From assembly GCA_013153145.1 (NCBI GenBank), contig JAADEY010000023.1, positions 1 through 22,453 on the forward strand: a stretch of 22,453 nucleotides of DNA, given 5' to 3'. Below are positions 1 through 19,803 of the stretch, one piece after another (position 1 is the first letter of the stretch; each line of letters begins with the position of its first letter). This DNA comes from Thermoproteota archaeon (GTDB lineage Archaea; Thermoproteota; Thermoprotei_A; Sulfolobales; Pyrodictiaceae). Made by a program: the position numbers and the translations under genes. Below the pieces are notes generated by a model that was not told the DNA's origin, ran no database searches, and saw nothing but the letters and a program-made list of their open reading frames with translations.

Positions 1-1018
1 CCTCCAGGTACTTCCTCACTATCGCCTCGCCGAGGGGGGTTAGTATCGTGTAGCCTCCACCCCTGCCTCCCCTATGGCCCTCCAGGAGCTTACCCCCTAT
101 CCTCTCCTCGAGCTTCTTGATCGTCGAGGCTATGTATGAGGGTTTTAGGCCGAGGGTCCTGCAGGCCGCCCTGAGGCTGTGCAGCATCGACACCGCGACG
201 AGGACTTCGAGTATCTGCTCCGGTATCCTCACTCCCCCGCACTCTATCTCCACCTTCACCCTTATCGATGGGAGTGCCCTCGGGGCCCCGTGCCTGCATG
301 GGGTGGAGGCGAGCTTGACGAGGTCTGCTATCTTCGCCTTCTCGAGGGGGAGGCCCTCCTCCCTCATGACTGATAGGGGGCACTTGTAGACCATGCAGCC
401 GTCTATGTAGAGTTTCCTGCAGTTGTAGGGGCATGGGGGCTCGAGGAGCGTCACCGCCCTCTCGCCGGCGTAGGCCCTCCTCGCCGTGTATCCGTAGAGG
501 AGGCCGAAGGGCAGCCCTACCCTGCTCAGCAGCTTCCTGGCCTCGGAGACTGTGCGTGTGTCGACGGGCGTGTATAGGCGGGGCGATATCCTGAGCCTCA
601 CTGGTATCGTGTCTAGTGGGAGCTGGGAGGCTATCTCCGCGCAGCGGCGGGCCTCCTCGAGGGAGGTGTAGTTGTAGAGCAGGGTGAGCTCCTCTACCCC
701 CTGCTCGTAGAGCATCCTTAGGGTTGTCAGCGCCTCCTGGAGGTTCGAGGATGGCGTCATCGATATCACTACCTCCGTGTTGGGGCCGCCGTATGTCTTC
801 ACGTAGCCGGCTATCCTCCTAACCGTCTGGGCGTCGGCGACGACCACCAGCTTCTTGCTGAGGTCGGCAGCCACCCTGAAAACGCCGGGGGTTAGGAGCT
901 CGGGGCGCCACTCGAGTATCAGCGTCTCCCTGGGGTATAGGGCGTCGAGAACCTCCTCTAGCCTCTCCTCCCCGAGCGGGGAGGTGAGGCTTAGTATCAG
1001 CGTGTCTAGGGACGACAT
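1..1018 (-). CDS. CorR-like transcriptional regulator, partial (C-terminus lies beyond window start): ~260-aa Cys-rich N-terminal domain followed by a ModE/LysR-type winged HTH
   Basis: Absent from the supplied ORF track because it runs off the window. I checked every minus-strand codon in the frame of ATG 1018-1016 down to position 2 and found no stop (339 codons). The ATG directly abuts the TGA (1021-1019) of the upstream V4R gene. Residues ~278-337 read 'MLHSLRAACRTLGLKPSYIASTIKKLEERIGGKLLEGHRGGRGGGYTILTPLGEAIVRKY', which matches the ModE N-terminal HTH signature as I recall it from E. coli ModE. A Cys motif C196-x3-C200-x7-C208-x4-C213 is encoded at 380-433. Confidence 0.75.
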   Translation of the reverse strand, partial: MSSLDTLILSLTSPLGEERLEEVLDALYPRETLILEWRPELLTPGVFRVAADLSKKLVVVADAQTVRRIAGYVKTYGGPNTEVVISMTPSSNLQEALTTLRMLYEQGVEELTLLYNYTSLEEARRCAEIASQLPLDTIPVRLRISPRLYTPVDTRTVSEARKLLSRVGLPFGLLYGYTARRAYAGERAVTLLEPPCPYNCRKLYIDGCMVYKCPLSVMREEGLPLEKAKIADLVKLASTPCRHGAPRALPSIRVKVEIECGGVRIPEQILEVLVAVSMLHSLRAACRTLGLKPSYIASTIKKLEERIGGKLLEGHRGGRGGGYTILTPLGEAIVRKYLE

Positions 1019-1609
1019 TCAGCCTGCCCTCACAACCACCATGAACTGGCAGTAGGGGTCTCCGCTCAGCCAGCAGTTCGTCTCCCTCACCGTCGGCGTC
1101 GCCTTCAACACGCTCTCAACAAGGTACTCTATGATGCCTGCCTCCCACTCACACATAGTACCCCCGATCTCCATGCCCGGGCCGAGGCCGCTGCAGGAGA
1201 GGCAGTCGTAGACGCGGAAGATGCACCTACCCCTCCTGCAGCCGAGGAAGTCGAAGAGCCCGATCCCCCTCCTCGCGAGCTCCAGGCCGGCCTCCATGAA
1301 GTCGTCGACCCTCCCGAGAACCCTCTCCGCGTACCGGTAGCCGGCCCTCCTCACGAGCATCCTGCCGAGGACGGGGTCGGCCATGTAGAGGGTCACGAGG
1401 AGCCTGCGGTGGGCCCCGGTGACCGCCTTGTCGCTCGCCCCGTGGACCCTCTGCGCGAAGAATGAGCGTGGCTTTAGGCCGCCGAGCCTCCTCGGGGTCT
1501 TCACCCTCCTCCACTTCTCTATCTCTGCCCTGAACTCGCCCCTCCCAACCCTGTATTCCACGTCGTCGATGACCCTTTCCAGTAGCCGTGTTTTCTCAGC
1601 TATCTGCAC
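1019..1609 (-). CDS. V4R (4-vinyl reductase) domain protein, CorQ-like putative sensor
   Basis: 196-aa ORF with a GTG start at 1609. The C-terminal half 'FDFLGCRRGRCIFRVYDCLSCSG...MCEWEAGIIEYLV...ETNCWLSGDPYCQFMVV' shows the Cys/Glu/Gly pattern typical of V4R domains. Its stop abuts the next gene's ATG, so the two form a bicistron. Confidence 0.8.
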   Translation of the reverse strand: MQIAEKTRLLERVIDDVEYRVGRGEFRAEIEKWRRVKTPRRLGGLKPRSFFAQRVHGASDKAVTGAHRRLLVTLYMADPVLGRMLVRRAGYRYAERVLGRVDDFMEAGLELARRGIGLFDFLGCRRGRCIFRVYDCLSCSGLGPGMEIGGTMCEWEAGIIEYLVESVLKATPTVRETNCWLSGDPYCQFMVVVRAG

Positions 1610-1786
1610 GCCCCATACCCCACAATATCTATACGTTGCTCTACTTGGAGATAAAGCTTACCATGGGTGCGGCTTTCCGCATAGAGCTTCGCAATAATCC
1701 ACGGTGATGTGGGCCGTATACGTGGCGGGGGTAACTCGACCCGATTATTAGTATTCAATGATGGGTTCCAATACACGGTGTGACTA
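1610..1786. promoter_or_regulatory. Divergent promoter/operator spacer between the V4R-regulator operon and cooF
   Basis: 177-bp non-coding stretch, locally AT-richer. TATA-like 'ATTATTAGTATT' at 1744-1755 lies 32-43 nt upstream of the cooF GTG (1787). TATA-like 'ATATCTATA' (1625-1633) and 'ATAAAG' (1651-1656) could serve the minus-strand operon. A short inverted repeat GTATT-N14-AATAC (1751-1774) sits between the TATA and the cooF start; its 5-bp arms are weak evidence. Confidence 0.4.
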
Positions 1787-2341
1787 GTGGCCCCAGCGAC
1801 ACGGGCACAGTACATCATCTACATCGACTACGAGAGATGCACCGGCTGCAGGAGCTGCGAGATAGCATGCGCCGTCGCCCACTCAGCAACCAAGAGCATC
1901 TACACTGCCCCGAGGGAGAAGCCGAGGCCCAAGCCGAGGATAAGGGTGTTCAGGGTAGGCGAGCTCAACGTCCCGATGAGGTGCCTCCACTGCGCCAACG
2001 CCCCCTGCGTCAGGGTGTGCCCGACCGGGGCTATGCATTACACCGATGAGGGCTTCGTGGTCGTCGACGAGGCTAAGTGCATTGGCTGCGGCCTATGCAC
2101 CCTCGTCTGCCCGATAGGCCACCCATACGTCGACCCAGAGACAGGGAAGGCCGTGAAGTGCACCTTCTGCTACAAGCGTATACGTGAAGGCAAGCTCCCC
2201 GCCTGCGTCGAGGCCTGCCCCGTCGACGCACTGATCTTCGGCAAGACCAGCGAGGTGCTGGAGGAGGTTAGGGCGAGGAAGGCCTCAGTCCTGGCCCAGG
2301 CCTACCTGCTGGGGAGGGACATCCTCCCCAGCCCAGCCTAG
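1787..2341 (+). CDS. cooF: CooF-type iron-sulfur electron-transfer protein (4x[4Fe-4S], HycB/CooF family)
   Basis: Four cluster motifs are present: 'CTGCRSCEIAC', 'CLHCANAPCVRVCP', 'CIGCGLCTLVCP' and 'CTFC...ACVEACP'. The gene ends 22 nt before cooS. GTG start. Confidence 0.9.
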   Translation: MAPATRAQYIIYIDYERCTGCRSCEIACAVAHSATKSIYTAPREKPRPKPRIRVFRVGELNVPMRCLHCANAPCVRVCPTGAMHYTDEGFVVVDEAKCIGCGLCTLVCPIGHPYVDPETGKAVKCTFCYKRIREGKLPACVEACPVDALIFGKTSEVLEEVRARKASVLAQAYLLGRDILPSPA

Positions 2342-2363
2342 CCCATGCATACCCGTGTGAGGG

Positions 2364-4274
2364 GTGGTCTCCGTGAAGTCCCCCAGGTCTCTCCGTATAA
2401 AGCCGGAGGATGTGACCACCGTTAAGGGGCTTGACAAGCTTATCTACAAGGCTGAGGAGGAGGGTGTCGAGCTAGCCTGGCACAGGTTCATGAAGCAGCA
2501 GCCGCAGTGTGGCTTCGGCCTCCTAGGGATCTGTTGTAGGAACTGTGCTATGGGCCCATGTAGGATCAACCCGTTCGGTGGGGAGCCTAGCAGGGGTGTC
2601 TGCGGAGCTACCGCCGACACTATCGTGGCGAGGAACCTTATCAGGATGATAGCTGCTGGAGCGGCTGCCCACAGCGACCACGCCAGGGACATACTATACG
2701 TGTTCCGCGACGTGGCGTGGGGCAGGAACAAGGCCTACAAGATAACCGACCCGGAGAAGCTGAAGTGGCTCGCCGGGAAGCTCGGCATAAAGACCGTGGG
2801 CCGCAGCATAATGGATGTAGCCAAGGACGTGGCGGCGGTGCTCGAGAAGGAGTTCGGCAAGCAGGATGAGGAGCCCCTGGCGCTTGTGAAGGCGCTTGCG
2901 CCGAGGAAGAGGCTGGCTGTCTGGCTCAAGGCGGGGATATGCCCGAGGAACATTGACAGGGAGATTGTCGAGATAATGCACCGCACACACATGGGCGTCG
3001 ACGCTGACCCGGTGAGCCTCATAGCGCAGGGTGCTAGGGCTGCGCTGGCAGACGGCTGGAGCGGCTCGATGATGGCCACCCTGCTCAGCGACATACTCTT
3101 CGGCACCCCCAAGCCGGTTAAGGCTACAGCCAACCTCGGCGTATTGAAGGAGGACTACGTCAACATCATAGTCCACGGCCACAACCCACTGCTATCGATG
3201 AAGATAGTTGAGGCCGCCATGAGCAAGGAGATGCAGGAGCTGGCGAGGAAGTATGGTGCTAAGGGAGTGAACGTTGCAGGCATGTGCTGCACCGGAAACG
3301 AGGTCTTGATGAGGCTTGGCGTGCCGATAGCAGGCAGCATGCTGATGCAGGAGCTGGCGATAGTGACGGGCGCCGTGGAGGCGATAGTAGCGGACTACCA
3401 GTGTATAATGCCGGCACTCGTCACCGTCGCGCAGTGCTACCACACCAAGCTGATAACAACCGAGAAGAAGGCCAAGATACCCGGGGCGCTGCACATAGAG
3501 TTCGACCCCGCGAGGGCGGATGAGTGCGCGAGGGAGATAGTGAGGATAGCTATTGAGAACTACCAGAACAGGGTTCCGGAGAAGGTGTTCATACCTAAGG
3601 AGAAGGTGGAGCTCGTCGCGGGCTTCAGCGTCGAGGCAATACTATCAGCCCTAGGCGGGACCCTCAAGCCGCTCGCGGACGCGCTGAGGAGCGGCGTGAT
3701 AAAGGGAGTCGTCGGCATAGTGGGCTGCAACAACCCCAAGGTCAAGCACACCTACGGCCACGTCGAGCTAACCAAGGAGCTGATAAAGAGAGACATACTC
3801 GTCGTGGGCACCGGCTGCTGGGCCATAGCCGCAGCGCTCCACGGCCTACTAACACCCAAGGCGGCATCCATGGCCGGGCCAGGGCTGAGGAAGCTATGCG
3901 CCAAGCTCGGCATACCACCAGCACTCCACATGGGCAGCTGCGTGGACTGCAGCCGCATGCTACTACTCCTAGGCATGCTGGCCGACGAGCTCGGAGTAGA
4001 CATATCAGACCTGCCCGTGGCGGGCTCGGCGCCGGAGTGGATGAGCGAGAAGGCGGTGAGCATAGGCACCTACTTCGTGGCCAGCGGCGTGCTGGTGCAC
4101 CTTGGTGTGGTGCCGCCGGTGCTTGGAAGCGAGAAGGTCACCAAGATACTGACCGAGGACCTGGAGGCAATCGTTGGCGCGAGGTTCTACGTCGAGACAG
4201 ACCCGAAGAAGGCGGCGGAGTACATAGCGGAGTACATCGAGGAGAAGAGGAGGAGGCTCGGCTGGCCCGTCTAA
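2364..4274 (+). CDS. cooS: Ni,Fe carbon monoxide dehydrogenase catalytic subunit (anaerobic CODH)
   Basis: 636 aa. The N-terminal B/D-cluster region reads 'CGFGLLGICCRNCAMGPCRI'. All C-cluster ligand contexts are recognisable: 'IVHGHNP', 'AGMCCTGNE', 'DYQCIMP', 'GIVGCNNP', 'VGTGCWA', 'HMGSCVDCSR'. Confidence 0.95.
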   Translation: MVSVKSPRSLRIKPEDVTTVKGLDKLIYKAEEEGVELAWHRFMKQQPQCGFGLLGICCRNCAMGPCRINPFGGEPSRGVCGATADTIVARNLIRMIAAGAAAHSDHARDILYVFRDVAWGRNKAYKITDPEKLKWLAGKLGIKTVGRSIMDVAKDVAAVLEKEFGKQDEEPLALVKALAPRKRLAVWLKAGICPRNIDREIVEIMHRTHMGVDADPVSLIAQGARAALADGWSGSMMATLLSDILFGTPKPVKATANLGVLKEDYVNIIVHGHNPLLSMKIVEAAMSKEMQELARKYGAKGVNVAGMCCTGNEVLMRLGVPIAGSMLMQELAIVTGAVEAIVADYQCIMPALVTVAQCYHTKLITTEKKAKIPGALHIEFDPARADECAREIVRIAIENYQNRVPEKVFIPKEKVELVAGFSVEAILSALGGTLKPLADALRSGVIKGVVGIVGCNNPKVKHTYGHVELTKELIKRDILVVGTGCWAIAAALHGLLTPKAASMAGPGLRKLCAKLGIPPALHMGSCVDCSRMLLLLGMLADELGVDISDLPVAGSAPEWMSEKAVSIGTYFVASGVLVHLGVVPPVLGSEKVTKILTEDLEAIVGARFYVETDPKKAAEYIAEYIEEKRRRLGWPV

Positions 4275-4278
4275 GCCG

Positions 4279-4283
4279 TTTTT
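4279..4283 (+). terminator. Oligo-T tract (TTTTT) 5 nt after the cooS stop; possible partial archaeal terminator or pause site
   Basis: 'TAAGCCGTTTTTCCCC' follows cooS directly. Archaeal termination uses oligo-T runs. It is the only T5 run I noticed in the CO island. Confidence 0.25.
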
Positions 4284-4312
4284 CCCCTCCCCCACCCACT
4301 CCCCCGCCAGCC

Positions 4313-4334
4313 TGTACACGTGTTGATGTACACG
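4313..4334. repeat. Direct repeat TGTACACG-N6-TGTACACG in the cooS-cooC spacer, overlapping the 8-bp palindrome ACACGTGT (4316-4323)
   Basis: Read directly: 'ccTGTACACGtgttgaTGTACACGg'. Function unknown. Confidence 0.35.
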
Positions 4335-4417
4335 GTTCTTCTCCCGGTCTACGCGTCTACGTGGCTAGCTCTCCTTATCCAGGTGGATGCCTAGACGTAT
4401 CACCTGGGGCTGCCTGC

Positions 4418-5230
4418 TTGGCCAGGTCGTTCAAGATTATTGTCGCGGGGAAGGGCGGCGTAGGGAAGACCACTGTTAGTGCAGGGCTCGCGGTTCTGCT
4501 CGCCAGGAGGGGGTATAGGGTAGTTGCCCTCGATACGGACTCCGTGCCCAACCTTGCCCTCAGCCTCGGCGTCCCCTTGGAGGAGGCCTCCAGGATCACG
4601 CCCCTGGTGGAGAACGTCGAGCTTGTGGAGGAGAGGACCGGCGCTAGGCCTGGTGGCGGCTGGGGGCTCCTCTTCACGCTCACCCCGCGTGTCGACGATA
4701 TACTCGAGAAGTACGGCGTCACTACGAGGGATGGTGTTAGGCTTGTCGTTGTGGGTGGTATAACTAAGCCCGGGGAGGGCTGCCTATGCCCCTCGATAGC
4801 CCTTGCAAAGGCGTTCATAGCACACGTGTTCGCCAACGAGGAGGCCGTGGTGATAGTCGACTCGGAGGCCGGGGCCGAGGTCTTCGGTAGGGGGCTGGCG
4901 GAGTACTTCGACCTAATGATAGCCGTGGCCGAGCCCACGGTGAGGAGCCTCTCGATAGCGAGGAGGCTCATAGAGCTCGCCAGGGGGCTTGACGTTAAAC
5001 GCTTCGCGGTCGTGATAAACAAGGTTAGGGATGAGCTTGCAGCCAAGAAGCTCTACGAGAGGGTTATGAGGGGGCTGGACTACCCGGTCTTCACAATCCC
5101 CTACGACCCTGTACTTGAGGAGTACGAGTCGCGGGGCTTGAGCGTTGCAGATCTCCCGGATGACTCGGAGCTGTTTTTAGCATTGACGAGCCTCGTCTCC
5201 TACATAGAGTCCCTGATCAAGGGGGGTTAG
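4418..5230 (+). CDS. cooC: CooC-type Ni-insertion ATPase (CODH maturation, MinD/Mrp family)
   Basis: P-loop 'AGKGGVGKTT' is near the N-terminus and the CooC metal-binding CxC motif 'GEGCLCP' is present. The 444-aa track ORF (3896-5230) overlaps cooS and is an artefact. Plausible starts are TTG 4418 (gives MARSFKIIVAGKGG) or GTG 4361. Confidence 0.88.
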   Translation: MARSFKIIVAGKGGVGKTTVSAGLAVLLARRGYRVVALDTDSVPNLALSLGVPLEEASRITPLVENVELVEERTGARPGGGWGLLFTLTPRVDDILEKYGVTTRDGVRLVVVGGITKPGEGCLCPSIALAKAFIAHVFANEEAVVIVDSEAGAEVFGRGLAEYFDLMIAVAEPTVRSLSIARRLIELARGLDVKRFAVVINKVRDELAAKKLYERVMRGLDYPVFTIPYDPVLEEYESRGLSVADLPDDSELFLALTSLVSYIESLIKGG

Positions 5231-5237
5231 AGGAGGC

Positions 5238-5435
5238 ATGTGCGAGTCAAAGATCGTGGTGAGGCTGGACGGGGAGGAGAAGGTGTTGGCTGACGAGATA
5301 GCAGCGCTGGACCCGGCGGCCATGAAGGCGTACAGGGTTGACGGCAGCACGGTGGACCTGGCCGGCTACAGGATCGAGATGATAGACTTCCTCCGCCACC
5401 GCGTCTACGTAAAGCCCGTGGAGAAGGAGGCCTAG
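5238..5435 (+). CDS. cooT: Small CooT-like putative nickel chaperone
   Basis: 65 aa starting 'MCESKIVV...', that is Cys at position 2 followed by a beta-rich sequence. It sits immediately after cooC, matching the R. rubrum cooFSCTJ order. An SD-like GAGGAGG lies upstream of the ATG. The assignment rests on size, Cys2 and synteny only. Confidence 0.55.
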   Translation: MCESKIVVRLDGEEKVLADEIAALDPAAMKAYRVDGSTVDLAGYRIEMIDFLRHRVYVKPVEKEA

Positions 5436-5439
5436 AGCA

Positions 5440-7035
5440 ATGAGGGATCCCCCGCCGGGGGAGACGCTGGCCGCCCTCCTAAGGCTCGCCGGCCTCAGGG
5501 ACTGCAGGGAGGAGGGGGGCGGCGTAGTCTACTGTAGGGCCGGGGCGGGGGAGGGTATTAGGGCCGCTGCGAGGCTCCACGAGGATAGCGGCTGTAGGCT
5601 CACCACCTGCCTGGCCTACGACTATAGGCTTGTTGACGGCTCGTTCCACGTCGTATACGTCTTCGACTGCCCCAGGCTCGGCAGGTACATAGACATCGAT
5701 ATAGCTGTCAGCGACTCCTCCATAGACTCCCTGGCCGCCGTCCTGGAGACCATGCAGTGCAAGTGGTGCGAGTGGGAGATCAGGGACCTCTACGGCATAG
5801 GGTTCCGCGGCCACCCCGGCAGGGGCAGACTTGTGCTCCCGGACTCCTGGCCCGAGGACTACCATCCCCTCCGCAAGGATGCTCCCAGCAGGCCTCCGAG
5901 GCTGGAGAGGCCGGCGAGGAGGAGGGCTAGGGGGCCCGGGCTCCCGCTCGGCCCCTACCACCCAGCCCTCCACGAGCCGGAGTACTTCGAGCTGGAGGTT
6001 GAGGGTGAGCGGGTTAAGGGGGTTAGGTATAGGGGGTTCTTCGTCTACCGTGGGATAGAGAAGCTCGCGGAGGACAGGTTTAGGGCTGAGCAGGTCCCCT
6101 TCCTCGCTGAGAGGATCTGCGGCATATGCGGCTTCGTCCACTCAACGACATACTGCATGGCGTTTGAGAGGGCTGTGGGGATCGAGGTCCCGGAGAGGGC
6201 GAAGTATCTGCGCAGCATGCTGCTCGAGATTGAGAGGATACACAGCCACCTCCTCTGCACCGCCGTGATGCTCCACGCCGCCGGCTATGATACGGGGTTC
6301 ATGCAGCTAATGGCTGTAAGGGAGGAGGTTATGAGTGTGGCTGAGGAGCTGACGGGTAACAGGAAGACGTACTCGGCAAACACCCCCGGCGGGGTGAGGA
6401 TAGACCCCGACGACTCCCTTGTCAGGGAGGCCGTGGAGAGGGTTTCTAGGGCTGCCGAGAAGGCGGTCAAGCTGGCCAGGAGCTTCCTGGAGGTCTCGGA
6501 GGTCTATACGAGGCTTGAAGGAGTTGGGGTGCTGGGGAGGAGGGATGCGTGGAGGCATGGGGCCCTAGGCCCCGTCGCGAGGGCCTCGGGGATAGATGTT
6601 GATGTTAGGAGGGATCACCCCTACGCCGCCTACGGGAGCCTGGAGTTCGAGGTGCCGGTGCGCGATGAGGGTGACTGTCTTGCAAGATACCTGCTCCGCC
6701 TCGACGAGGTTCTCGAGTCGGCGTCCATACTGAGGCAGATAGCGAGGAGCATCCCGCGGGGCCCCGTCGTGAACAGGGACTATGACTACGCCGAGCTCCG
6801 TGTAGGGCAGGCCGCCTCCGAGGCGCCGAGGGGGGAGTGCATCCACTACGTCATCACGGGTGTCTCGGGGAGGCTGTGGAGGTGGAAGGTTAGGGCGCCG
6901 AGCTACAACAACATCCCCCTCCTCGAGCTCATGCTTAAAGGCTACCTGGTCGCCGACGCCCCCGTGATAATATCGAGCATAGACCCCTGCTTCTCCTGCA
7001 CCGACCGCCTCATACGCGTGAAGAGGGTGGGGTGA
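5440..7035 (+). CDS. Group-4 [NiFe]-hydrogenase large subunit, HycE-type fusion of a NuoC-like (CooU) and a NuoD-like (CooH/EchE) domain
   Basis: The N-terminal ~150 aa carry the NuoC signature 'WCEWEIRDLYGIGFRGHP...LVLPDSWPEDYHPLRKD'. The NuoD-like part carries Ni-Fe ligand motifs L1 'RICGICGFVHS' and L2 'DPCFSCTDR'. Only 8 residues follow L2, so there is no long C-terminal maturation peptide. Confidence 0.9.
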   Translation: MRDPPPGETLAALLRLAGLRDCREEGGGVVYCRAGAGEGIRAAARLHEDSGCRLTTCLAYDYRLVDGSFHVVYVFDCPRLGRYIDIDIAVSDSSIDSLAAVLETMQCKWCEWEIRDLYGIGFRGHPGRGRLVLPDSWPEDYHPLRKDAPSRPPRLERPARRRARGPGLPLGPYHPALHEPEYFELEVEGERVKGVRYRGFFVYRGIEKLAEDRFRAEQVPFLAERICGICGFVHSTTYCMAFERAVGIEVPERAKYLRSMLLEIERIHSHLLCTAVMLHAAGYDTGFMQLMAVREEVMSVAEELTGNRKTYSANTPGGVRIDPDDSLVREAVERVSRAAEKAVKLARSFLEVSEVYTRLEGVGVLGRRDAWRHGALGPVARASGIDVDVRRDHPYAAYGSLEFEVPVRDEGDCLARYLLRLDEVLESASILRQIARSIPRGPVVNRDYDYAELRVGQAASEAPRGECIHYVITGVSGRLWRWKVRAPSYNNIPLLELMLKGYLVADAPVIISSIDPCFSCTDRLIRVKRVG

Positions 7036-7038
7036 GCG

Positions 7039-7554
7039 GTGGTGGGGAGGCTCACAGCCCTCCTGGCGGCATTGAGGACTGGGAGGCTCACCCTCCCATA
7101 CCCGTACCAGCCCGCGCCCGCTCCCAGGAGTTATCGTGGGCCCCCAGTATTCCTCGACGACTGTATAGGGTGTGGGGCCTGCACCTACGCCTGCCCGGCG
7201 GGGGCCCTTAGTCTAAGGTACCTAGCCGGGGACGACGTGGTAGTCCTGGAGCATAGTGTTGCTAGGTGCATCTTCTGCATGCTGTGCGCCGATGTATGCC
7301 CGATGGAGGCCGTCCGGAGGACGAGCGTCTACGAGCTGGCCACAGACAACCCGGCCGAGCTCGTGCAGAGGCTCGAGCATAGGCCGGCACACTGCGCCGA
7401 CTGCGGCGCGGCCTACTCGACGCTGAGGGCCGTGTCGGAGGCCGCTGGCAGGGTTGGCGGGATCCAGAGGTACATGCTCCGCTGCCCCGGCTGCAGGGCG
7501 GTGGAGGTCGCCTCGGTCATAGCGTCTTCTAGGAGGGGTGGTGGCCTTGCCTAG
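7039..7554 (+). CDS. HycF/CooX/NuoI-type 2x[4Fe-4S] hydrogenase subunit
   Basis: 'CIGCGACTYACP' and 'CIFCMLCADVCP' are both present. The N-terminus 'LTLPYPYQP...YRGPP' and the C-terminal 'CADC...CPGC' parallel E. coli HycF as I recall it. Confidence 0.85.
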   Translation: MVGRLTALLAALRTGRLTLPYPYQPAPAPRSYRGPPVFLDDCIGCGACTYACPAGALSLRYLAGDDVVVLEHSVARCIFCMLCADVCPMEAVRRTSVYELATDNPAELVQRLEHRPAHCADCGAAYSTLRAVSEAAGRVGGIQRYMLRCPGCRAVEVASVIASSRRGGGLA

Positions 7555-8020
7555 GAGGAGCCTCTGGGTGTACCATGTCAATACCGGGGGGTGTAATGGC
7601 TGCGATATAGAGCTCCTTGCAGCCCTCAGCCCACTCTACGACCCCGAGCGCTTCGGCGTTAGGCTGGTCGAGTCGCCGAGGCACGCGGACGCCTTCGTCT
7701 TGTCCGGGCCGGTGACGCTGCAGAGCCTGCCGAGCGTGGTTGAGGCGTTCCGGGTCGGGAGGCCGGAGGCCGTGATAGCCCTCGGCTCCTGCGCCTGCGG
7801 CGGAGGGATATGGCATGACAGTGCAGCGGTGCTCGGCGGCATAGACCCCCTCCTAGACCTGCTCGAGGAGGAGGGGATTCCGAGGCCGAGGGTTATCCGT
7901 GTACCGGGGTGTCCTCCCAGGCCCCACTCGATACTCTATGGCGTTGCAGTCCTCCTGGGATACGCGGAGCCTAAGGCGGCCAAGCTGTTGGCGGAGGCGC
8001 GGAGAGCGGCTAGGATTTAA
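7538..8020 (+). CDS. Group-4 [NiFe]-hydrogenase small subunit (NuoB/HycG/CooL family)
   Basis: Proximal-cluster Cys contexts 'NTGGCNGCDIE', 'GSCACGGG' and 'PGCPPRP' are present. 160 aa. It overlaps the preceding gene by 17 nt. Confidence 0.9.
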   Translation: MVALPRRSLWVYHVNTGGCNGCDIELLAALSPLYDPERFGVRLVESPRHADAFVLSGPVTLQSLPSVVEAFRVGRPEAVIALGSCACGGGIWHDSAAVLGGIDPLLDLLEEEGIPRPRVIRVPGCPPRPHSILYGVAVLLGYAEPKAAKLLAEARRAARI

Positions 8021-8125: not shown

Positions 8126-8548
8126 GTGCGTATAGCCGCGACGGACATACCGGGCAACCTGAAGGTACCCTACGGGCTAGCCATGATTAAGGGGGTTGGC
8201 TACAACCTCGCCCTCGCCCTGTGCAGGCTTCTGGGCATCGACCCGGACAAGAGGATAGGCTTCCTCACCGACGCGGAGATAGCGAGGCTGGAGGAGGCCA
8301 TTAAGAACCCGAAGGCGGTGGGTATACCGTCGTGGATGCTTAACAGGAGGAAGGACTATGAGACCGGCAAGGACATGCACCTCGTCGGCGCAGACCTCAT
8401 CTACTATGTCAGGAGGGACATTGAGAGGGAGAAGAGGATTAAGAGCTGGAGGGGTATACGCCACGCGCTCGGCCTCAAGGTCAGGGGCCAGAAGACTAGC
8501 CGCACCGGCCGCCTCGGCGTAACCGTTGGAGTGTCGAAGAGGAGGTGA
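8126..8548 (+). CDS. rps13: 30S ribosomal protein S13 (uS13)
   Basis: 'RIAATDIPGNLKVPYGLAMIKGVGYNLALALCRLLGIDP' is typical archaeal S13. GTG 8126 is the first canonical start, but the conserved 'EYKYIV' lies in frame upstream of it (see finding). Confidence 0.93.
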   Translation: MRIAATDIPGNLKVPYGLAMIKGVGYNLALALCRLLGIDPDKRIGFLTDAEIARLEEAIKNPKAVGIPSWMLNRRKDYETGKDMHLVGADLIYYVRRDIEREKRIKSWRGIRHALGLKVRGQKTSRTGRLGVTVGVSKRR

Positions 8549-8551
8549 TGA

Positions 8552-9070
8552 GTGGTGGGTGACCCGAAGAAGCCGCGTAAGAAGTGGCAGAGCCCTAAGC
8601 ATCCGTGGATTAAGGAGAGGCTGCTCCGCGAGATAGAGTTGATGGGCCGCTACGGGCTGAGGAACAAGAAGGAGATATGGAAGGCTGAGACGATGGCCAG
8701 GAAGGTGAGGCATCGTGCCAGGGCTCTGCTCGCACTCCCGCCGGCTATAAGGGAGGCTGAGGAGAAGAGCCTCCTGCATAGGCTCATCCAGCTCGGAGTG
8801 CTCCCGGAGAACGCGACGCTGGACGATGTACTCGGCCTCACAGCCGAGCACTTCCTGGAGAGGAGGCTGCAGACGATAGTGTACAAGAAGGGGCTTGCTA
8901 GGACGCCGTATGAGGCGAGGCAGCTGATAGTCCACGGCCATATAGCGATAGGTGGTAGGAGGGTTCGCTCCCCGGGCTACCTCGTCAAGAAGGATGAGGA
9001 GGATCTCGTGGACTACGCGCCTACAAGCCCCTACTTCAAGAAGAGGCTTGAGGCCGCGCAGCAGGCCTAG
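8552..9070 (+). CDS. rps4: 30S ribosomal protein S4 (uS4)
   Basis: The '(M)[18 protein letters not shown]' N-terminus and an S4 RNA-binding domain ('[15 protein letters not shown]') are present. The start is GTG 8552 or GTG 8555. Confidence 0.95.
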
Positions 9071-9082
9071 GTGGTGGGGTGA

Positions 9083-9487
9083 GTGGCCGTGTTCTCCGCG
9101 AGGGAGATTAAGTGGGGTGTGGCCCACATATACTCGAGCTACAACAACACGATAATACACATAACAGACCTCACTGGGGCTGAGACGTTCGCCAGGATAA
9201 GCGGCGGCATGGTTGTCAAGGCCGACCGTGAGAAGCCCTCACCATACGCGGCCATGATGGCTGCCGCGAGGGCCGCCCAGCAGGCGATGGAGAAGGGTAT
9301 AATGGCTATACACATCAAGGTTAGGGCTCCCGGCGGCCATGGCCCTAAGACTCCTGGGCCCGGCGCGCAGGCCGCGATAAGGGCGCTTGCGAGGAGCGGC
9401 TTCATCATAGGGAGGATAGAGGACGTCACCCCGCTGCCGCATGACACTACGAGGAGGCCTGGCGGGCGTAGGGGTAGGAGGCTCTAG
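9083..9487 (+). CDS. rps11: 30S ribosomal protein S11 (uS11)
   Basis: '[26 protein letters not shown]' and '[20 protein letters not shown]' identify it. Confidence 0.95.
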
Positions 9488-9529
9488 CCTCCCCGTCCCG
9501 CCTCCCTGTATTGTTGGAGGGGTAGTGTT

Positions 9530-10387
9530 TTGGCTAGGGCTGTGAGGCTCCTGGAGGAGGAGAAGTATAGGCTCCGCATGCTCGTGGAGGGGTATCCCCT
9601 CCCCCTAGTTAATGCTGTGCGTAGGGCATGCTTCACCGACGTCCCGGTGATGGCTATTGACGTTGTCGAGTTCTTTGAGAACAATACGGTGCTCTACGAC
9701 GAGATAATAGCGCACCGGCTCGGCCTAATACCATTGACGTCCGAGGAGGCGCTGGAGAAGTACCCGCCCCCGGAGGAATGTAGGGACGCGCCGGTCGGGG
9801 ATCCACGCTGCTACGCCGTGCTCAGCCTCGAGGTGCATACGTCGAAGACGGAGCCGCAGAGGATAGTCTACAGCGGCGACCTCCAGCCGCAGGACCCTGA
9901 CGTGAAGCCCGTCTACCCCAACATACCGATAGTCGTTATGGCTCCCCAGCAGAGCCTACGCCTGCAGGCCTACGCCAGGCTTGGCTATGGGAAGGAGCAC
10001 GCCAAGTGGATCCCGGTGACCGTCGCCGCCCACAAGTATCTCCCGGTTCTCTCCTTCGACCTCGAGAAGCCGGGGGCCAGGGAGTGCATCGAGTGCATCG
10101 AGCAGGCCTACCCCTGGCTCGCTGAGAAGATGAGGAAGATGGGTAGGGGGAGTATAGAGGTTCTCGAGGACGTGAACACCTCGGCGCTGTACTGGTGCGT
10201 GCATCGCCGCTGCGGGGAGGCCGCCAAGCTGGACTACCTGCAGGACAGGTTGATACTGACTATAGAGACTACGGGCTCCCTCACAGCGCGCCGGGTACTC
10301 TTGAAGGCGGTGGAGGCGGTCGAGGCTAAGGCTAAGAGGCTACTGGAGGAGGTTGAAGCACTTAAAACCCGGAACGAGCAGGGCTAG
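9530..10387 (+). CDS. rpoD: DNA-directed RNA polymerase subunit D (Rpo3)
   Basis: 'PLPLVNAVRRACFTDVPVMAID' and 'YDEIIAHRLGLIPL' identify it, and it occupies the position after S11. It has four Cys ('CIEC', 'CVHRRC') where some archaeal D subunits bind an Fe-S cluster. TTG start. Confidence 0.9.
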   Translation: MARAVRLLEEEKYRLRMLVEGYPLPLVNAVRRACFTDVPVMAIDVVEFFENNTVLYDEIIAHRLGLIPLTSEEALEKYPPPEECRDAPVGDPRCYAVLSLEVHTSKTEPQRIVYSGDLQPQDPDVKPVYPNIPIVVMAPQQSLRLQAYARLGYGKEHAKWIPVTVAAHKYLPVLSFDLEKPGARECIECIEQAYPWLAEKMRKMGRGSIEVLEDVNTSALYWCVHRRCGEAAKLDYLQDRLILTIETTGSLTARRVLLKAVEAVEAKAKRLLEEVEALKTRNEQG

Positions 10388-10407
10388 GGCAAGGGGTGCG
10401 CGCCTGA

Positions 10408-10779
10408 ATGCAGGCAGTCAAGAGGACTGGGCCTACCAACATAGTGCTCCGGAAGACGTTGAGGAGGCTGAGGAGCCAGGCTAGGAGGGAGAAGGCCCCT
10501 ATATGGCGTTACGTCTACGAGCTCTTGTCGAGGCCGAGGAGGCTGAGGATAGTCGTTAACCTCTCGAAGATAAACCGCTACACGGGGCCCGGGGACGTGG
10601 TCGTTGTGCCGGGTAAGGTGCTGGGTGCTGGTAGGCTAGACCACCCCGTCACGGTGGCTGCAGCTGCATTCTCCTACACGGCTGTAAGGAAGATAAGGGA
10701 GGCTGGGGGGAGGGTTCTACACATAACGCAGTTGATGGAGGAGAACCCGAAGGGCTCTAGGGTGAAGATAATCATCTAG
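10408..10779 (+). CDS. rpl18e: 50S ribosomal protein L18e
   Basis: 123 aa with 'RTGPTNIVLRKTLRRL...APIWRYVYELLSRPRR'. The position is syntenic. Confidence 0.9.
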   Translation: MQAVKRTGPTNIVLRKTLRRLRSQARREKAPIWRYVYELLSRPRRLRIVVNLSKINRYTGPGDVVVVPGKVLGAGRLDHPVTVAAAAFSYTAVRKIREAGGRVLHITQLMEENPKGSRVKIII

Positions 10780-10782
10780 CCC

Positions 10783-11277
10783 GTGGTGGGATCAATGGTC
10801 GTGGAGGTTGAGCCCCCGAAGCCCCCGGCAAGGGTTCTCGTGGTTGATGCCGAGGGCCAGGTGCTGGGGAGGATGGCTAGCATCGTGGCGAAGAAGCTGC
10901 TTGAGGGCTACAGGGTCGTGATAGTGAATGCCGAGAAGGCCGTGGTGAGCGGAGACCCCCTAATGGTTATTGAGAGCTACCAGAAGCTGCTCGGAGTCAA
11001 GGTGCACGTCAACCCCTACAAGTGGGGGCCTAGGAGGCCTAGGGACCCGAGGTGGATTGTTAGGGACGCGGTGGAGGGCATGCTTCCGAGGTGGAAGGAG
11101 CAGGGGAGGAAGGCTGCGAAGAGGCTCAGGGTCTACATAGGCGTGCCGCCGGAGTACGAGAAGGCTGAGAAGGTGAAGTTCCCGGAGGCAGACTATAGGA
11201 GGCTGGGCCACAAGTTTATACTCGTAGGCGAGATTGCACGCGCGATGGGATGGAAGGGGGTGGCTGAGAGGCCATGA
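10783..11277 (+). CDS. rpl13: 50S ribosomal protein L13 (uL13)
   Basis: 'VVDAEGQVLGRMASIVAKKLLEGYRVVIVNAEKAVVSG' identifies it. The start is GTG 10783 or ATG 10795. Confidence 0.92.
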   Translation: MVGSMVVEVEPPKPPARVLVVDAEGQVLGRMASIVAKKLLEGYRVVIVNAEKAVVSGDPLMVIESYQKLLGVKVHVNPYKWGPRRPRDPRWIVRDAVEGMLPRWKEQGRKAAKRLRVYIGVPPEYEKAEKVKFPEADYRRLGHKFILVGEIARAMGWKGVAERP

Positions 11278-11786
11278 GCACGGCTGAGGCTGCGGGTAGT
11301 AGGGGGCAGCAGGAGGCCGGGCAGGCCGGCGGAGTAAGGGTCTTGATGGCTAAGGCTGTTGAGGTTCCGACGCAGAAGGGGAAGGTAAGGATAGTGATAG
11401 CGACGGGTAAGAGGAAGACCGCCATAGCGAGGGCTGTGATAAAGCCTGGTAAGGGCAGGGTCTGGGTCAACGGTGTGCCGGTGGAGCTCTGGCCGGTTGA
11501 GATGGCTAGGCTGAAGATGATGGAGCCCCTGATGCTTGCTGGCAGGGAGATCTGGGGGAGCGTCGATATAAGGGTGAATGTGAGGGGAGGAGGCTACATG
11601 GCGCAGGCGGACGCCGTGAGGATGGCTATAGCGAGGGGCCTCGTGGCCTATACTGGCAGCCAGCAGCTCAAGGACATATACGAGCAGTTCGACCGCTCAA
11701 TGATAGCTGGCGACCCGAGGCAGACCGAGCCCGAGAAGCCGATGAGGAGGGGTGCTAGGAGGAGGTGGCAGAAGAGCTACAGGTGA
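11274..11786 (+). CDS. rps9: 30S ribosomal protein S9 (uS9)
   Basis: '[23 protein letters not shown]' and the C-terminal 'RRRWQKSYR' identify it. ATG 11274 forms an ATGA overlap with the rpl13 stop. ATG 11346 is an alternative, shorter start. Confidence 0.9.
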
Positions 11787-13859: not shown

Positions 13860-14305
13860 GCCGGGTAGTGGACTACGTGGTTGATGCAAGCGTCTTTCTC
13901 CCCCTCCTGCTCCGCTACGGCCGCAGCCTACGCGGCGTGCTTGCCAGGAACCGCTTCCACGTCCTAGACCTGACATGCTATGAGACGTGTAATGGGCTGT
14001 GGAAGGAGAGTGTTAAGCTCCGCATACTCGACACTGGTACAGCTACTAGGCTCTGTAGGTGCTTCATTGAGATAGCGGCGCGGTACACCAGGATACACAG
14101 TATATGCGAGCTCGACGCCGCCCGCGTCATGGAGATCGCTGTTTCATGCGGGATAACCTTCTACGATGCAGCATACATAGAGCTTGCGAGGATGCATGGG
14201 ATCCCCGTGGCGAGTAATGATAGGGATATACTGGTCAACGCTCCGAGGTATGGAGTCGAGGTGTACAGTCTCGCCGAGTTCGAGAAACTATTAGGGCTAG
14301 GCTAG
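13856..14305 (+). CDS. vapC: VapC-type PIN-domain ribonuclease toxin
   Basis: PIN acidic residues appear in the expected contexts: 'VVDASVF' (Asp), '[10 protein letters not shown]' (Glu), '[10 protein letters not shown]' (Asp) and 'ASNDRD' (Asp). It overlaps the antitoxin gene by 4 nt. Confidence 0.8.
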
Positions 14306-14608
14306 CCATACTAGGTTGTGGAAGCAGCTCCTCCTACCCGTGTGGCATGCCGGGCCGCCCTCCACGACCATGTATAGTAGCGCGTCGTGGTCGCAGTCGG
14401 TGATTATAGCAGCCACGTACAGCATGTTGCCGCTCTCCTCCCCCTTCATCCAGAGCCTCCTCCTACTCCTCGAGTAGAAGTGGGCGAGGCCCGTCTCCAT
14501 GGTCCTCCTCACAGCCTCCCTGTCGGCATAGGCGAGCATGAGCACCGCGCCATCCCATAGGCTCTGCACGACCACCGGCACGAGGCCGCCCTGCTTCTCG
14601 AAGTCTAT
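14297..14608 (-). CDS. hisI: Phosphoribosyl-AMP cyclohydrolase (conserved core; start codon unresolved)
   Basis: '[61 protein letters not shown]...DCDHDALL...GPACHTG' is classic HisI. The end at 14297 is firm. Canonical in-frame starts are only ATG 14767 (154-nt overlap with hisH) or GTG 14581 (which cuts the first strand). 14608 marks the ATA codon where homology begins. Confidence 0.85.
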
Positions 14609-14613
14609 GCATG

Positions 14614-15264
14614 CTAGCGGGTCGACGCCCTCACCGCCTCTATGAAGTTCCTCAGTACCTTCAACCCCTCCCTGCTGCTCTTCTCCGGGTGGAACTGGGT
14701 CGCGTAGACCGGGGGCTTCTCCACCGCAGCCGCGAAGACCGTCTCCCCGTGCCTCGCGGTCGCGCATACCGTTTCATCCCCCTCGTTGTATGGTACGGCG
14801 TAGCTGTGTATGAAGTACATGTACGTGTTGTCCTCCACTCCGCGGAGCAGCGTACACCTCCTCACCACGTGTATCCTCGTCCACCCGATATGGGGCAGCT
14901 TCCTAGCCTTCATCCTCTTAACCACGCCCTTCAGGAGGCCGAGGCCACGCGTAGGCCTACCACTATAGTCCAGGGACTCCTCGCTCCACTCATAGAGCAG
15001 CTGGAGGCCTAGGCATATGCCGAGGAGGGGGCGGCCCTCACCAACCATCCTCCTTATAGCCTCCGCCCCCCTCTCCCCAATCCTCCTCATCGCGGCGTCG
15101 AAGCACCCAACGCCCGGGAGTATCACCGCATCGGGATCCACCGCCTCCAGCTCCTCGGGGCTGGTGACTACAATGGGCTCGCCTCCAGCCCTCCTAACGC
15201 CGCTCGAGATGCTGTAGATGTTGCCGACACCATACTTGAATATGGCTATCCTGGGCGGCCTCAC
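14614..15264 (-). CDS. hisH: Imidazole glycerol phosphate synthase, glutamine amidotransferase subunit
   Basis: '[14 protein letters not shown]', 'LPGVGCF', 'GICLGLQLL' (catalytic Cys) and 'QFHPEKS' identify it. Confidence 0.93.
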
Positions 15265-15581
15265 CCCTCACCACCACCCCTGCTCCCCGCCCGCTCCTTA
15301 TGCCTCCTCTCAAGCTCGGAGACGACATCCCTTATCGAGGCGCCGCGTAGCGCCAGGAGCACCATGAGGTGGTAGAGGAGGTCGGCCGACTCGTAGACCA
15401 GCGTCTCCCTGCTCCCCTGCAGGGCCTCCACTATCGTCTCGACCGCCTCCTCGCCGAGCTTCCTCGCAGTATAGCCCACCCCCCTCCTGGCCAGGAGTGC
15501 TGTGTAGGAGTCCTCCGGCATCTCCCTCAGCCTATCCCTTATAACCTCCTCCAACTCCTCCAGGAAGTCTAGGCTCCCCAC
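15261..15581 (-). CDS. hisE: Phosphoribosyl-ATP pyrophosphatase
   Basis: 106 aa with 'SYTALLARRGVGYTARKLGEEAVETIVEAL' and 'ESADLLYHLMVLLA'. It overlaps hisH by 4 nt. Confidence 0.9.
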   Translation of the reverse strand: MGSLDFLEELEEVIRDRLREMPEDSYTALLARRGVGYTARKLGEEAVETIVEALQGSRETLVYESADLLYHLMVLLALRGASIRDVVSELERRHKERAGSRGGGEG

Positions 15582-16819
15582 TTCTCCATCCTCCTCCCAA
15601 TACTCTTAGCGTGGAGCGTGAAGCCCTCGTAGCTTGCAAGCCTATAGGCAGCCCTATACGCCTCCCTAGGCACCTCCCTGACGACCGCCACCGGCTTGAG
15701 GAAGTCGTAGACGCTAAGGCCTCCCCTCCACCTAGCAGACCCGGTTGTAGGCAGCACGTGGCTCGGCCCCGCCGCATAGTCCATGACCGCCACGGGGTGG
15801 CCAACGCTCACCGCGCCGGTGTTAGCGACCCTCTGCTCGAGGGCCGCAGCCTCCCCGAGGAGCTCCAGGTGCTCCGGCGCATAAGCGTCCGCCAGCTCAG
15901 CCGCCTCATCAACCCCGCTGACCTCAACCATGTAGACCCTGCCGACACGGTCAGCGTAGGGGGCCGCGAGCTCCATGGCTTTCTCGAGGAGCTTCCTGCT
16001 CCAGGAGACTAGTACCCCGGTTGAGAGGGGGCCGTGCTCGGCCTGCGCGAGCGTGTCCAGCGCTGCCTCGACGGGGTCCGTGTCGGGGCCCGCTATCACC
16101 ATTATCTCGCTCGGCCCGGCGAGCATGTCGACCCCCACCACGCCCGCCACCAGGGCCTTGGCGGCAGTAACATAGGGGCCCCCGGGCCCCGCAACCATAT
16201 CCACGCGCGGCACGGGGGAGGCTCCATAAGCCATGGCTGCGACCGCCTGCGCCCCGCCCAGGGCTACCGCCACCGATGCCCCAGCACGGTACATGGCCGC
16301 GAGTATCACCGGGTCTGCCTTGAAGCCCCTGCAGCCGCCAGGGCGGCAGGGGGGAGTCGCCGCGACCACCTCCTCGGCGCCAGCGATCCTCGCCGGTATT
16401 ATGGTCATGAGGGCTGTGGAGGGGTATGGCTTGAGGCCGGCTGGCACGTAGACGCCTACCCTGCGGACGGGCCTCCAGGTGAGCTCTATGCCTGGGAGGG
16501 CCTCAACCCTCCTCGGCGGGAGCGTTGCCTCATGGTACTCCTCTATCCTCTCCGCCGCATAGTCTATAGCCTCCCTCAGGGCCGCGGGGAGCCCCTCATA
16601 GGCCTCCCTCATCTCCTCCCTAGTTATCAAGGGATCCTCGTAGCAGACGCCGTCGAACCTCTCACTATACCTGCACGCCGCCTCATAGCCCCTCGAGGCT
16701 ATCTCCTCCACAACCGGCCTAACCCTCTCGATGTAGGGGGCTAGGCTGTAGGGCCTCTTCAGCTCCCTAACGACACCCTCTACCCCGAGATCCCTCGTGG
16801 AGAGGAGGACTGGCTTCAC
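15569..16819 (-). CDS. hisD: Histidinol dehydrogenase
   Basis: 416 aa with '[11 protein letters not shown]', 'GPSEIMVIA', 'LAQAEHGP' and '[12 protein letters not shown]'. Confidence 0.93.
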
Positions 16820-17574
16820 GCGGGCCTCACCTCTACACCGTGCCTGGCCAGGTACTCCTTGACCTCGCGGATGCTGTAGACGCCGTAGTGGAAAATACCG
16901 GCGGCTAGGGCCGCGTCGGCCCCAACCATGAATGCCTCGAGGAAGTGGTGTGGGTTGCCCGCACCCCCGCTGGCTATGACGGGTATCGTCACCGCCTCCA
17001 CGACCGCCCTGGTGAGCTCGAGGTCGTAGCCCATCCTTGTGCCATCCCTATCTATGCTTGTCAGCAGTATCTCCCCCGCCCCGAGCTCTGCAACCCTCCT
17101 AGCCCACTCGACGGCGTCTAGGCCGGTCGGTATCCTTGCCCCCGCGACGTAGACCTCCCACCAGCCCCCCGGCCTCCTCTTAGCATCTATCGCGACAACC
17201 ACAGACTGGCTCCCATACTCCGAGGCCGCCCTCCTCACGAGCGATGGATCCCTGACCGCCGCCGTGTTTATCGAGACCTTGTCGGCGCCGGAGTCTAGCA
17301 GGCGGCCGAACTCCCGCAGGCTCCTCACCCCCCCGCCGACGGTGAATGGTATCGAGAGTGTGCTTGCAACATCTCTCACAACCCTGTATATGGGCTCCCT
17401 CTGCTCGGGCGTCGCCGAGATGTCCAGGAAGACTAGCTCGTCGGCCCCCTGCTCCTCGTAGAGGGCTGCCAGCTCGACCGGGTCCCCGGCGTCCCTTAGG
17501 TTGCGGAAGTGGACTCCCTTGACAACCCTGCCCCCGGAGACGTCTAGGCATGGGATGATCCTCTTTGCCGGCAC
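16816..17574 (-). CDS. hisF: Imidazole glycerol phosphate synthase, cyclase subunit
   Basis: '[20 protein letters not shown]', '[11 protein letters not shown]', 'TVGGGVRS' and 'ASGGAG' identify it. Confidence 0.95.
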
Positions 17575-19713: not shown

Positions 19714-19794
19714 GGCTATGCGTAGGGCCTGGGTGTCAGCGGTGAACGCGGGCCATCTCCCTGCGCCTCCGCCTGGGGGTGGGAGACGGGTGGG

Positions 19795-19800
19795 TTTAAA
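19795..19800 (-). promoter_or_regulatory. TTTAAA TATA-like box in the hisC-hisG spacer (possible internal promoter)
   Basis: The palindromic TTTAAA begins 4 nt after the hisC stop and lies 82-87 nt upstream of the hisG GTG. Confidence 0.3.
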
Positions 19801-19803
19801 GCC

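Follow-up and report, generated by a model that had tools for sequence, protein, structure and literature searches.

The window analysed here is a 22,453-nt stretch of a Thermoproteota archaeon of the family Pyrodictiaceae (contig JAADEY010000023.1). It opens with two minus-strand genes that resemble corQ and corR of Thermococcus onnurineus NA1 and stand next to an operon for carbon monoxide dehydrogenase (CODH) and a [NiFe] hydrogenase. The corQ-like gene (1019–1609) was called as an open reading frame (ORF) for a 196-aa V4R protein, with a GTG start at 1609 and a TGA stop at 1021–1019. This stop codon abuts the ATG (1018–1016) of the corR-like gene (2–1018), which encodes a helix-turn-helix (HTH) protein, and the plus strand reads CATTCA across the junction. 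The window starts at base 1 of its contig (C18 of an assembled genome of 1.19 Mb, 79% complete), and the contig start cuts the 3′ end of corR. Of about 346 aa, 339 are visible; complete relatives measure 345–350 aa, so the gene is about 7 codons short. A minus-strand bicistron of a V4R and an HTH gene with this junction had been claimed in a preliminary description of the DNA, and all of its coordinates held. The two genes are translationally coupled, and since the TGA directly precedes the ATG, the two proteins are probably made in a fixed proportion. Coupling was seen in both lineages, as TGA–ATG in the window and, in T. onnurineus, as a 4-nt overlap between the genes for a 187-aa V4R protein (Pfam V4R, E 1.4e-11) and a 370-aa HTH_1 protein.

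A 177-bp spacer (1610–1786), the presumed divergent promoter and operator region, separates corQ from cooF. It had been noted as AT-richer, and its G+C content was indeed 49%, compared with 62% for the window. This is the lowest value of any 177-nt stretch in the window, and just 0.13% of such stretches were as low. On the plus strand, the presumed target operon (1787–8020) comprises cooF (1787–2341), cooS (2364–4274), cooC and cooT, as well as genes for a fused NuoC/D-type [NiFe] large subunit, an Fe-S subunit and a small subunit, as assigned with Pfam. This gene order was alike in relatives and in T. onnurineus. Domain scans found no other regulator besides the pair within the window.

Homology, synteny and linkage to one CooS clade

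The window proteins were compared with those of T. onnurineus using BLASTP. CorQ showed 28% identity over 176 of its 196 aa (E 2e-16). CorR showed 28% identity over 264 aa (window aa 83–337, E 2e-25), an alignment that reached far outside the HTH. A profile from the window's clade matched CorR of the Thermococcus type (type I, see below) over positions 14–343. In contrast, the other V4R protein of the genome aligned over 35 aa only (E 5e-4), and generic ModE/LysR HTH proteins matched CorR over only the last ~90 aa. Judged from these near full-length alignments, the likeness to CorQ and CorR exceeds that of generic domains, and the CorQ/CorR-type identity proposed in the preliminary description is retained for both proteins.

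In T. onnurineus, cooF, cooS, cooC, a cooT-like ORF and hydrogenase genes lie downstream of the pair, a layout that corresponds to TON_1016–1031 with cooF as TON_1017 (PMC4463584, PMC2718504). In both loci a V4R gene is coupled to a downstream gene whose product carries a ModE/LysR-type HTH at its C-terminus, and the two adjoin cooF–cooS–cooC–cooT and a group-4 hydrogenase. They differ in orientation: the window pair is divergent from cooF across 177 bp, whereas the Thermococcus pair is co-directional. Passages in later papers describe T. onnurineus CorQR as a CO-responsive positive regulator (PMC4791640, PMC6557876, PMC13077300).

CorR proved to be rare. An exhaustive search of 1.84 billion representative proteins with a hidden Markov model (HMM) profile from 3 close relatives returned ~28 full-length representatives, 16 of them at E 1e-30 or better. 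A word-based protein search gave just 3 CorQ and 9 CorR matches, and the exhaustive HMM search was needed. The adjacency of the pair to cooF is not due to chance, as it recurs beside cooF–cooS in every related locus with enough sequence. These loci include five genomes (G001, G002, G025, G026 and G286), eight Thermococci-type contigs, one of which is assigned to a Thermotogota MAG, 18 Thermococcaceae genomes and Pyrodictium-like contigs.

Co-occurrence was surveyed in 498 genomes, consisting of 97 Thermococcaceae and a sample of 401 Thermoproteota. CorR was present in 19 of the 97 Thermococcaceae, with V4R on one side and cooF–cooS on the other wherever the contig sufficed. CooS was found in 34 of the 97. 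All 17 genomes whose CooS is 69–76% identical to that of the window held CorR, and none of the ~15 with only 62–64% CooS did. For T. gammatolerans, a CODH without the regulator-containing cluster has been described (PMC2718504). In the Thermoproteota sample, CooS at least 68% identical was present in the window's genome (G000) and in G025, G286, G044 and G384. Exactly these five held full-length CorR beside cooFS, a remote paralogue in G186 apart, and no full-length CorR was found in 24 Thermoproteota genomes with other CooS types. In the genomes surveyed, CorR is tied to a single clade of CooS that shares 68% identity or more with the CooS of the window. Related genomes are non-independent samples, so this co-occurrence describes gene-cluster linkage and is not a statistical test. 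The preliminary description had asked whether such pairs accompany cooS or also stand beside unrelated genes in genomes lacking it. Across the survey, CorR stood beside cooF–cooS only with the one CooS clade; the pair was not found beside unrelated genes, and the G186 paralogue was the sole CorR exception.

These results bear on the simplest alternative, in which unrelated V4R and ModE-HTH proteins lie beside cooF by chance. Both domains are widespread: 144 of the 401 Thermoproteota genomes gave a match confined to the HTH with E at or below 1e-15, and the window's own genome has a second V4R protein. The data contradict this alternative, and its probability is practically negligible. The alignments to CorQ and CorR run over the full length, compared with the 35-aa match of the in-genome V4R paralogue, the CorR architecture is rare, and CorR lies beside cooFS in all but the one remote paralogue.

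The pair shares full-length homology with CorQ and CorR, keeps a conserved synteny and is linked exclusively to one CooS clade. On the sequence and by analogy with T. onnurineus, the two proteins are quite probably CorQ/CorR-family positive regulators of the adjacent cooFSCT–hydrogenase operon; activation, a CO or redox signal, a binding site and complex formation are what we infer. In T. onnurineus, Kim et al. reportedly observed in 2015 that losing corQ or corR impairs CO-dependent growth and that overexpression raises CODH expression. Homologues are said to have been known then only in Thermococcus and 'Ca. Korarchaeum', and the latter is classed within Thermoproteota in GTDB. The pair was found in a crenarchaeal-looking genome, as the preliminary description had put it, but with 'Ca. 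Korarchaeum' it is not a wholly new example outside the Euryarchaeota.

Several related proteins were observed during the survey. The second V4R protein of the window's genome is a stand-alone, MJ1460-like protein of 159 aa (G000:C16:41854-42333; L085 1355–1834). It is unrelated to CorQ outside its last 35 aa, and the sole CorR match of the genome lies on contig C18. The G186 paralogue (L033/L078, G186:C1:170162-171271) is 528 aa long; it combines a barrel bearing CX3CX2C with an HTH and is extended at the C-terminus by a further domain of 170 aa. The paralogue adjoins an apparent formate/nitrite-type transporter gene, recognised by eye, and no cooS was present in the flanking 1.5 kb. A 4.3-kb contig binned as 'Thermotogota bacterium' (L026, JAADCS010000069.1) carried a Thermococcus-type corQ–corR–cooF–cooS arrangement. 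Its CorR grouped inside the Thermococcus branch, and the contig probably reflects misbinning, not CorQR in a bacterium.

Domains of CorR and CorQ

The winged HTH of CorR is of the ModE type and occupies aa 267–338 (5–220, minus strand). It matched HTH_1 PF00126 at aa 270–331 of 339 (E 3.3e-9; 37 bits, above the cut-off of 26.6). TIGR00637, the N-terminal domain of ModE, also matched, with E 6.9e-10 and 38.9 bits, below the cut-off of 98.5. PDB profile matches were 2ijl (E 4.9e-12) and ModE 1b9m. With ModE and LysR regulators, CorR shares an HTH of the HTH_1/ModE-N family including the Gly-rich wing 'RGGRGGGYTILT'. The position of the matches places this HTH at the C-terminus, not at the N-terminus as in those regulators, and CorR has no LysR substrate-binding domain and no Mop or TOBE domain. 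Membership in the LysR-type transcriptional regulators was rejected because HTH_1 is C-terminal and LysR_substrate gave no match; membership in ModE was rejected because TIGR00637 stayed below its cut-off and neither Mop nor TOBE matched. Of the earlier assignment as a ModE/LysR-HTH protein, the HTH family stood and the LysR-type architecture did not. Pyrodictium-like homologues of CorR are labelled 'LysR family transcriptional regulator' at NCBI.

The HTH type touches on an alternative function, in which the pair monitors whether Ni, Fe or Mo is available for maturing CODH and hydrogenase, much as ModE responds to molybdate. The ModE-type HTH, the nickel chaperones cooC and cooT among the neighbours and the Cys-rich sequences of both CorQ and CorR are consistent with it. 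Against it stand the missing match to a Mop or TOBE molybdate-binding domain, the restriction of the family to one CooS clade, with no such tie to other Ni enzymes, and the phenotype of CO-dependent growth given in passages of the published work (PMC4791640, PMC13077300). Metal-supply sensing is thus very improbable.

The first 260 aa of CorR matched no Pfam family. An AlphaFold2 (AF2) model with a pLDDT of 85 predicted a barrel-like domain at aa 1–165, a beta-rich Cys region at aa 170–215 and the winged HTH. Alternating strands and helices in the model, together with Foldseek, point to an alpha/beta barrel-like N-domain (524–1018, minus strand) that is similar to radical S-adenosylmethionine (SAM) enzymes. 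Foldseek matched TIM-barrel aldolases at E ~3e-4, and the longest superposition was with the radical SAM enzyme AbmM (8wm2, 293 columns, TMq 0.42). The Radical_SAM family PF04055 matched 5 of 26 members of the CorR family, in each case short of the gathering score, and gave no match to the window protein. T. onnurineus CorR carries the sequence CDATCANC, and a CX3CX2C motif is likewise present in CorR of other Thermococcus and of most of the remaining type I members. This homologue motif, the sub-threshold profile matches and the moderate fold match would make the N-domain radical-SAM-like and possibly derived from a radical SAM barrel. No link between CorR and radical SAM was found in the literature searched. 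In the window CorR itself, the CX3CX2C motif is absent and no Cys precedes residue 196, and catalytic radical SAM activity was rejected.

A Cys-rich beta-hairpin region follows at aa 196–241 (296–433, minus strand) with C196, C200, C213 and C241, located from the alignment and from strands predicted at aa 170–211. The C200-x8-G-x4-C213 pattern of the CorR family resembles the twitch/SPASM hairpin. C200 and C213 were at least 90% conserved in the family alignment (A3), C241 was kept in most rows, and C196 was limited to the window's clade plus two outlying members (P0029 and P0038).

The V4R core of CorQ was located at aa 131–191 (1037–1219, minus strand; PF02830, E 5.2e-11, above the gathering cut-off). 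C136-x2-C139, C153, E156, E176, C179 and C187 were kept in all full-length CorQ rows, the truncated ORF L058 being the exception. A longer motif, C124-x4-C129-x6-C136-x2-C139 (1193–1240, minus strand), was recognised in the alignment, with C124 and C129 specific to the window's clade. The AF2 model of CorQ had a pLDDT of 77. In Foldseek it superposed over its whole length on PoxR/MopR sensor domains, Bet3/TRAPPC3 and the V4R protein MJ1460, with H-NOX domains as a weaker match. For the PoxR/MopR/DmpR sensor domains (XylR_N plus V4R), E values were 3e-5 to 1e-4. The Cys/Glu/Cys/Cys set of PoxR aligned with C153, E176, C179 and C187 of CorQ; in PoxR and MopR these residues are the zinc ligands. 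CorQ differs from this group in that it has no AAA+ or sigma-54 activator module and has an added CxxC, plus two further Cys in the window's clade.

The best NCBIfam match of CorQ was the V4R part of MsvR (NF053755, E 1.7e-8). In MsvR, a redox-sensitive regulator of methanogens, an HTH is fused to a V4R domain that controls DNA binding and has the same Cys spacing, and redox sensing by its V4R cysteines is established. Redox-active Cys of MsvR presumably lie at three of the four CorQ positions C153, E176, C179 and C187. In MsvR, one polypeptide carries both the V4R domain and an ArsR-type HTH, the latter at its N-terminus, whereas sensor and DNA binder are separate proteins in the window. Membership in MsvR was rejected, as the match reached 34.4 bits compared with a cut-off of 220 and covered 60 aa of the V4R part only.

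A redox switch like that of MsvR is the alternative suggested by these similarities. C153, C179 and C187 of CorQ and the extra Cys would gate DNA binding through a thiol or Fe-S switch, the operon would be switched on under reducing or anoxic conditions in the cell, and any effect of CO would be an indirect one, via ferredoxin reduction. Besides the MsvR match, five Cys are kept in all CorQ and seven in the window's clade, the CorR hairpin keeps three or four, and no haem-binding signature was seen. However, in the alignment the C/E/C/C residues coincide with the structural zinc site of PoxR and MopR, which suggests a structural rather than a redox role. The strict link to one CODH clade is more specific than a general redox sensor would lead one to expect, and the T. 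onnurineus pair is called CO-responsive in the passages of the citing papers named above (PMC4791640, PMC6557876, PMC13077300). A redox switch is therefore considered unlikely.

Cysteine architectures of the CorQR family

Three Cys architectures were distinguished. Type I comprises Thermococcus, including T. onnurineus, as well as G025 and G026. Here CorR holds an N-terminal Cys motif, a 'CPNP'-type Cys and C200/C213/C241, and CorQ holds the five universal Cys. The N-terminal motif is CX3CX2C in Thermococcus, degenerate in G025 and C-x2-C-x3-C in G026. Type II contains the window, G001, G002 and the Pyrodictium-like loci L005, L079, L081 and L083. Its CorR has no Cys in the N-terminal segment, is ~25 aa shorter and gains C196 (CPxxC); exceptions in this segment were P0008 with three non-motif Cys and P0183 with one. 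Type II CorQ gains C124 and C129, which complete the C-x4-C-x6-C-x2-C motif, and H67. Both Cys were present in 7 of 7 type II CorQ, and all others had E/D and M/I at these positions. Type III consists of Thermofilum-like members (G286, P0028, P0031 and P0180), in which CorR keeps CX3CX2C without C200/C213/C241; the one CorQ examined, that of G286 (L030), holds the five universal Cys.

Conserved between the window pair and T. onnurineus are, in CorQ, the five universal Cys and two Glu and, in CorR, C200, C213 and C241. The window pair differs in that its CorR has neither CX3CX2C nor the 'CPNP' Cys, has an N-terminus shortened by ~25 aa and gains C196, and in that its CorQ gains C124, C129 and H67. 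On the CorR tree, type II formed a single branch (UFboot 99, SH-aLRT 97; 11 rows, ~6 lineages), so a single loss of CX3CX2C is sufficient. The pair was inverted, i.e. divergent from cooF, in every type II locus examined. As judged from the alignments, the Cys architectures co-vary between the partners: the motif is lost on CorR and Cys are gained on CorQ.

The loss of CX3CX2C excludes SAM-radical chemistry for CorR in the window's clade. Any metal-based sensing would therefore have to use CorQ with its seven Cys, the four-Cys hairpin of CorR, or both. The preliminary description had placed CO perception in the V4R domain. CorQ is indeed a V4R sensor-domain protein, but the radical-SAM-type CX3CX2C of T. 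onnurineus CorR means that CO sensing need not reside in V4R alone. One tentative explanation of the co-variation, which we rate as rather unlikely overall, is a sensing metal centre that is portable between the partners. The open iron site of a radical-SAM-type [4Fe-4S] cluster on Thermococcus-type CorR could bind CO. In the Pyrodictiaceae-type clade, this site would have been lost once and replaced by C124/C129/C136/C139 on CorQ and the completed hairpin C196/C200/C213/C241 on CorR, with the universal CxxC of CorQ at or near the CorQ–CorR interface. If true, the two natural variants would be a ready-made comparison for locating the sensing site.

Proposed regulation of the cooFSCT–hydrogenase operon

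If the pair works as in T. onnurineus, CorQ and CorR would jointly form a positive regulator. CorR would be the DNA-binding partner and bind the spacer via its ModE-type HTH. CorQ would be the sensor or co-regulator, with a whole PoxR/MopR-like V4R sensor domain, the putative Cys/Glu/Cys/Cys metal site and the CorQ-specific CxxC. The site of action of both would be the 177-bp divergent spacer, and the pair probably controls its own promoter as well, given that the divergent layout permits autoregulation.

The spacer was aligned with that of a same-genus relative. Blocks at 1611–1664 on the corQ side and at ~1728–1786 on the cooF side were conserved, and the centre diverged. Candidate promoter elements were read from the sequence. 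A TATA-like element for cooF, ATTATTAGTATT (1744–1755, plus strand), lies ~38 nt before the GTG at 1787 and was conserved in G001. A possible ribosome-binding site, GGTG (1777–1780, plus strand), precedes the same GTG, and TTTAT (1651–1655, minus strand) is a candidate element for corQ. Upstream of the TATA-like element, the palindrome CGTATACG (1715–1722) is a weak candidate for an operator half-site. The octamer also occurred in L083, and GTATAC in G001 and G002, with no enrichment over shuffles. Short direct repeats in the spacer were not conserved outside the genus. For an archaeal sequence, a sigma-70 promoter scan carries no weight.

With the haem CO sensors CooA and RcoM, the pair shares its presumed role, activation of a cooFS–hydrogenase cluster in response to CO. 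A regulator of either kind had been described as absent; none was encoded in the window, and the scan of the assembled genome (79% complete) found neither a Crp-type HTH (PF13545) above cut-off nor LytTR (PF04397). Membership of the pair in CooA or RcoM was rejected, as there was no Crp-type HTH above cut-off and no LytTR, and no sequence or fold relationship was found.

Several points weigh against CorQR-type activation of the operon by the pair. The identity of 28% to the validated pair is low. The CX3CX2C of the validated CorR is absent in the window CorR, and the mechanism may therefore differ from that of T. onnurineus. An operator was sought by alignment of six type II spacers and by listing the 8-mers common to all four type II lineages. 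No shared motif above chance was found, with 10 common 8-mers compared with 8.1 in shuffles. Finally, G044 and G384 carry a CorR homologue beside cooFS, and the upstream 1.5 kb holds no V4R gene, so CorQ would not be universally required. Of these CorQ-less loci, L031 (G044, CorR at 1489–2595) has only a CxxC, and L032 (G384, CorR at 1434–2534) has CX3CX2C.

CooS of the window was 69–76% identical to that of CorQR-bearing Thermococcus, which belong to another phylum, and CorQ and CorR only ~28%. Within the genus, CooF and CooS were 97–98% identical, compared with 84% for CorQ, 76% for CorR and 80% for the hydrogenase large subunit. CooF and CooS identities so far above those of the regulators suggest that one CODH clade spread laterally, with much faster evolution of the regulators or a recent exchange of cooFS.

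Relatives whose contigs extend past corR (L002, L005 and L079–L083) hold NuoH-, NuoK- and NuoL/M-like membrane genes at this position. These lie on the cooF strand, converge on corR and overlap its stop codon by 4 nt, an arrangement that differs from that of T. onnurineus. The module consists of one NuoH-like, one NuoK-like and two or three NuoL/M-like (Proton_antipo_M) genes and was located at 11629–13373 in L002, 4974–9977 in L081, 4120–6316 in L079 and 3630–6540 in L083. Because relatives carry these genes right beyond corR, the lack of membrane subunits in the CODH–hydrogenase island of the window is probably a contig-end artefact. The closest match in the window's own genome to a NuoH-like gene of a relative was only 52% identical and lay inside another contig (C13), so the cognate membrane module would be either unassembled or absent. 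On its other side, the island abuts an S13–S4–S11–RpoD–L18e–L13–S9 operon (8126–11786). A complete histidine biosynthesis operon follows on the minus strand (14297–20871). Both are an ordinary housekeeping context.

The CorQR family extends into Pyrodictiaceae-like Thermoproteota. In the part of a 2026 survey that lists CorQR, screened via the generic KEGG ortholog K02019, two Thermoproteota CODH/ECH genomes are given as 'not detected' (PMC13077300). The function of the window pair was rated as expected and its architecture as informative. To our knowledge, CorQR adds a third type to the CO-responsive regulators that control anaerobic CODH clusters, and it alone among them contains no haem. 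Cys architectures that co-vary between the partners, with a radical-SAM-type motif on CorR or extra Cys on CorQ, would narrow the location of the sensing metal centre, and the natural variants would be useful for spectroscopy and mutagenesis. Overexpression of CorQR in T. onnurineus is said to have raised H2 output, and the family may be relevant to engineering the conversion of CO to H2.

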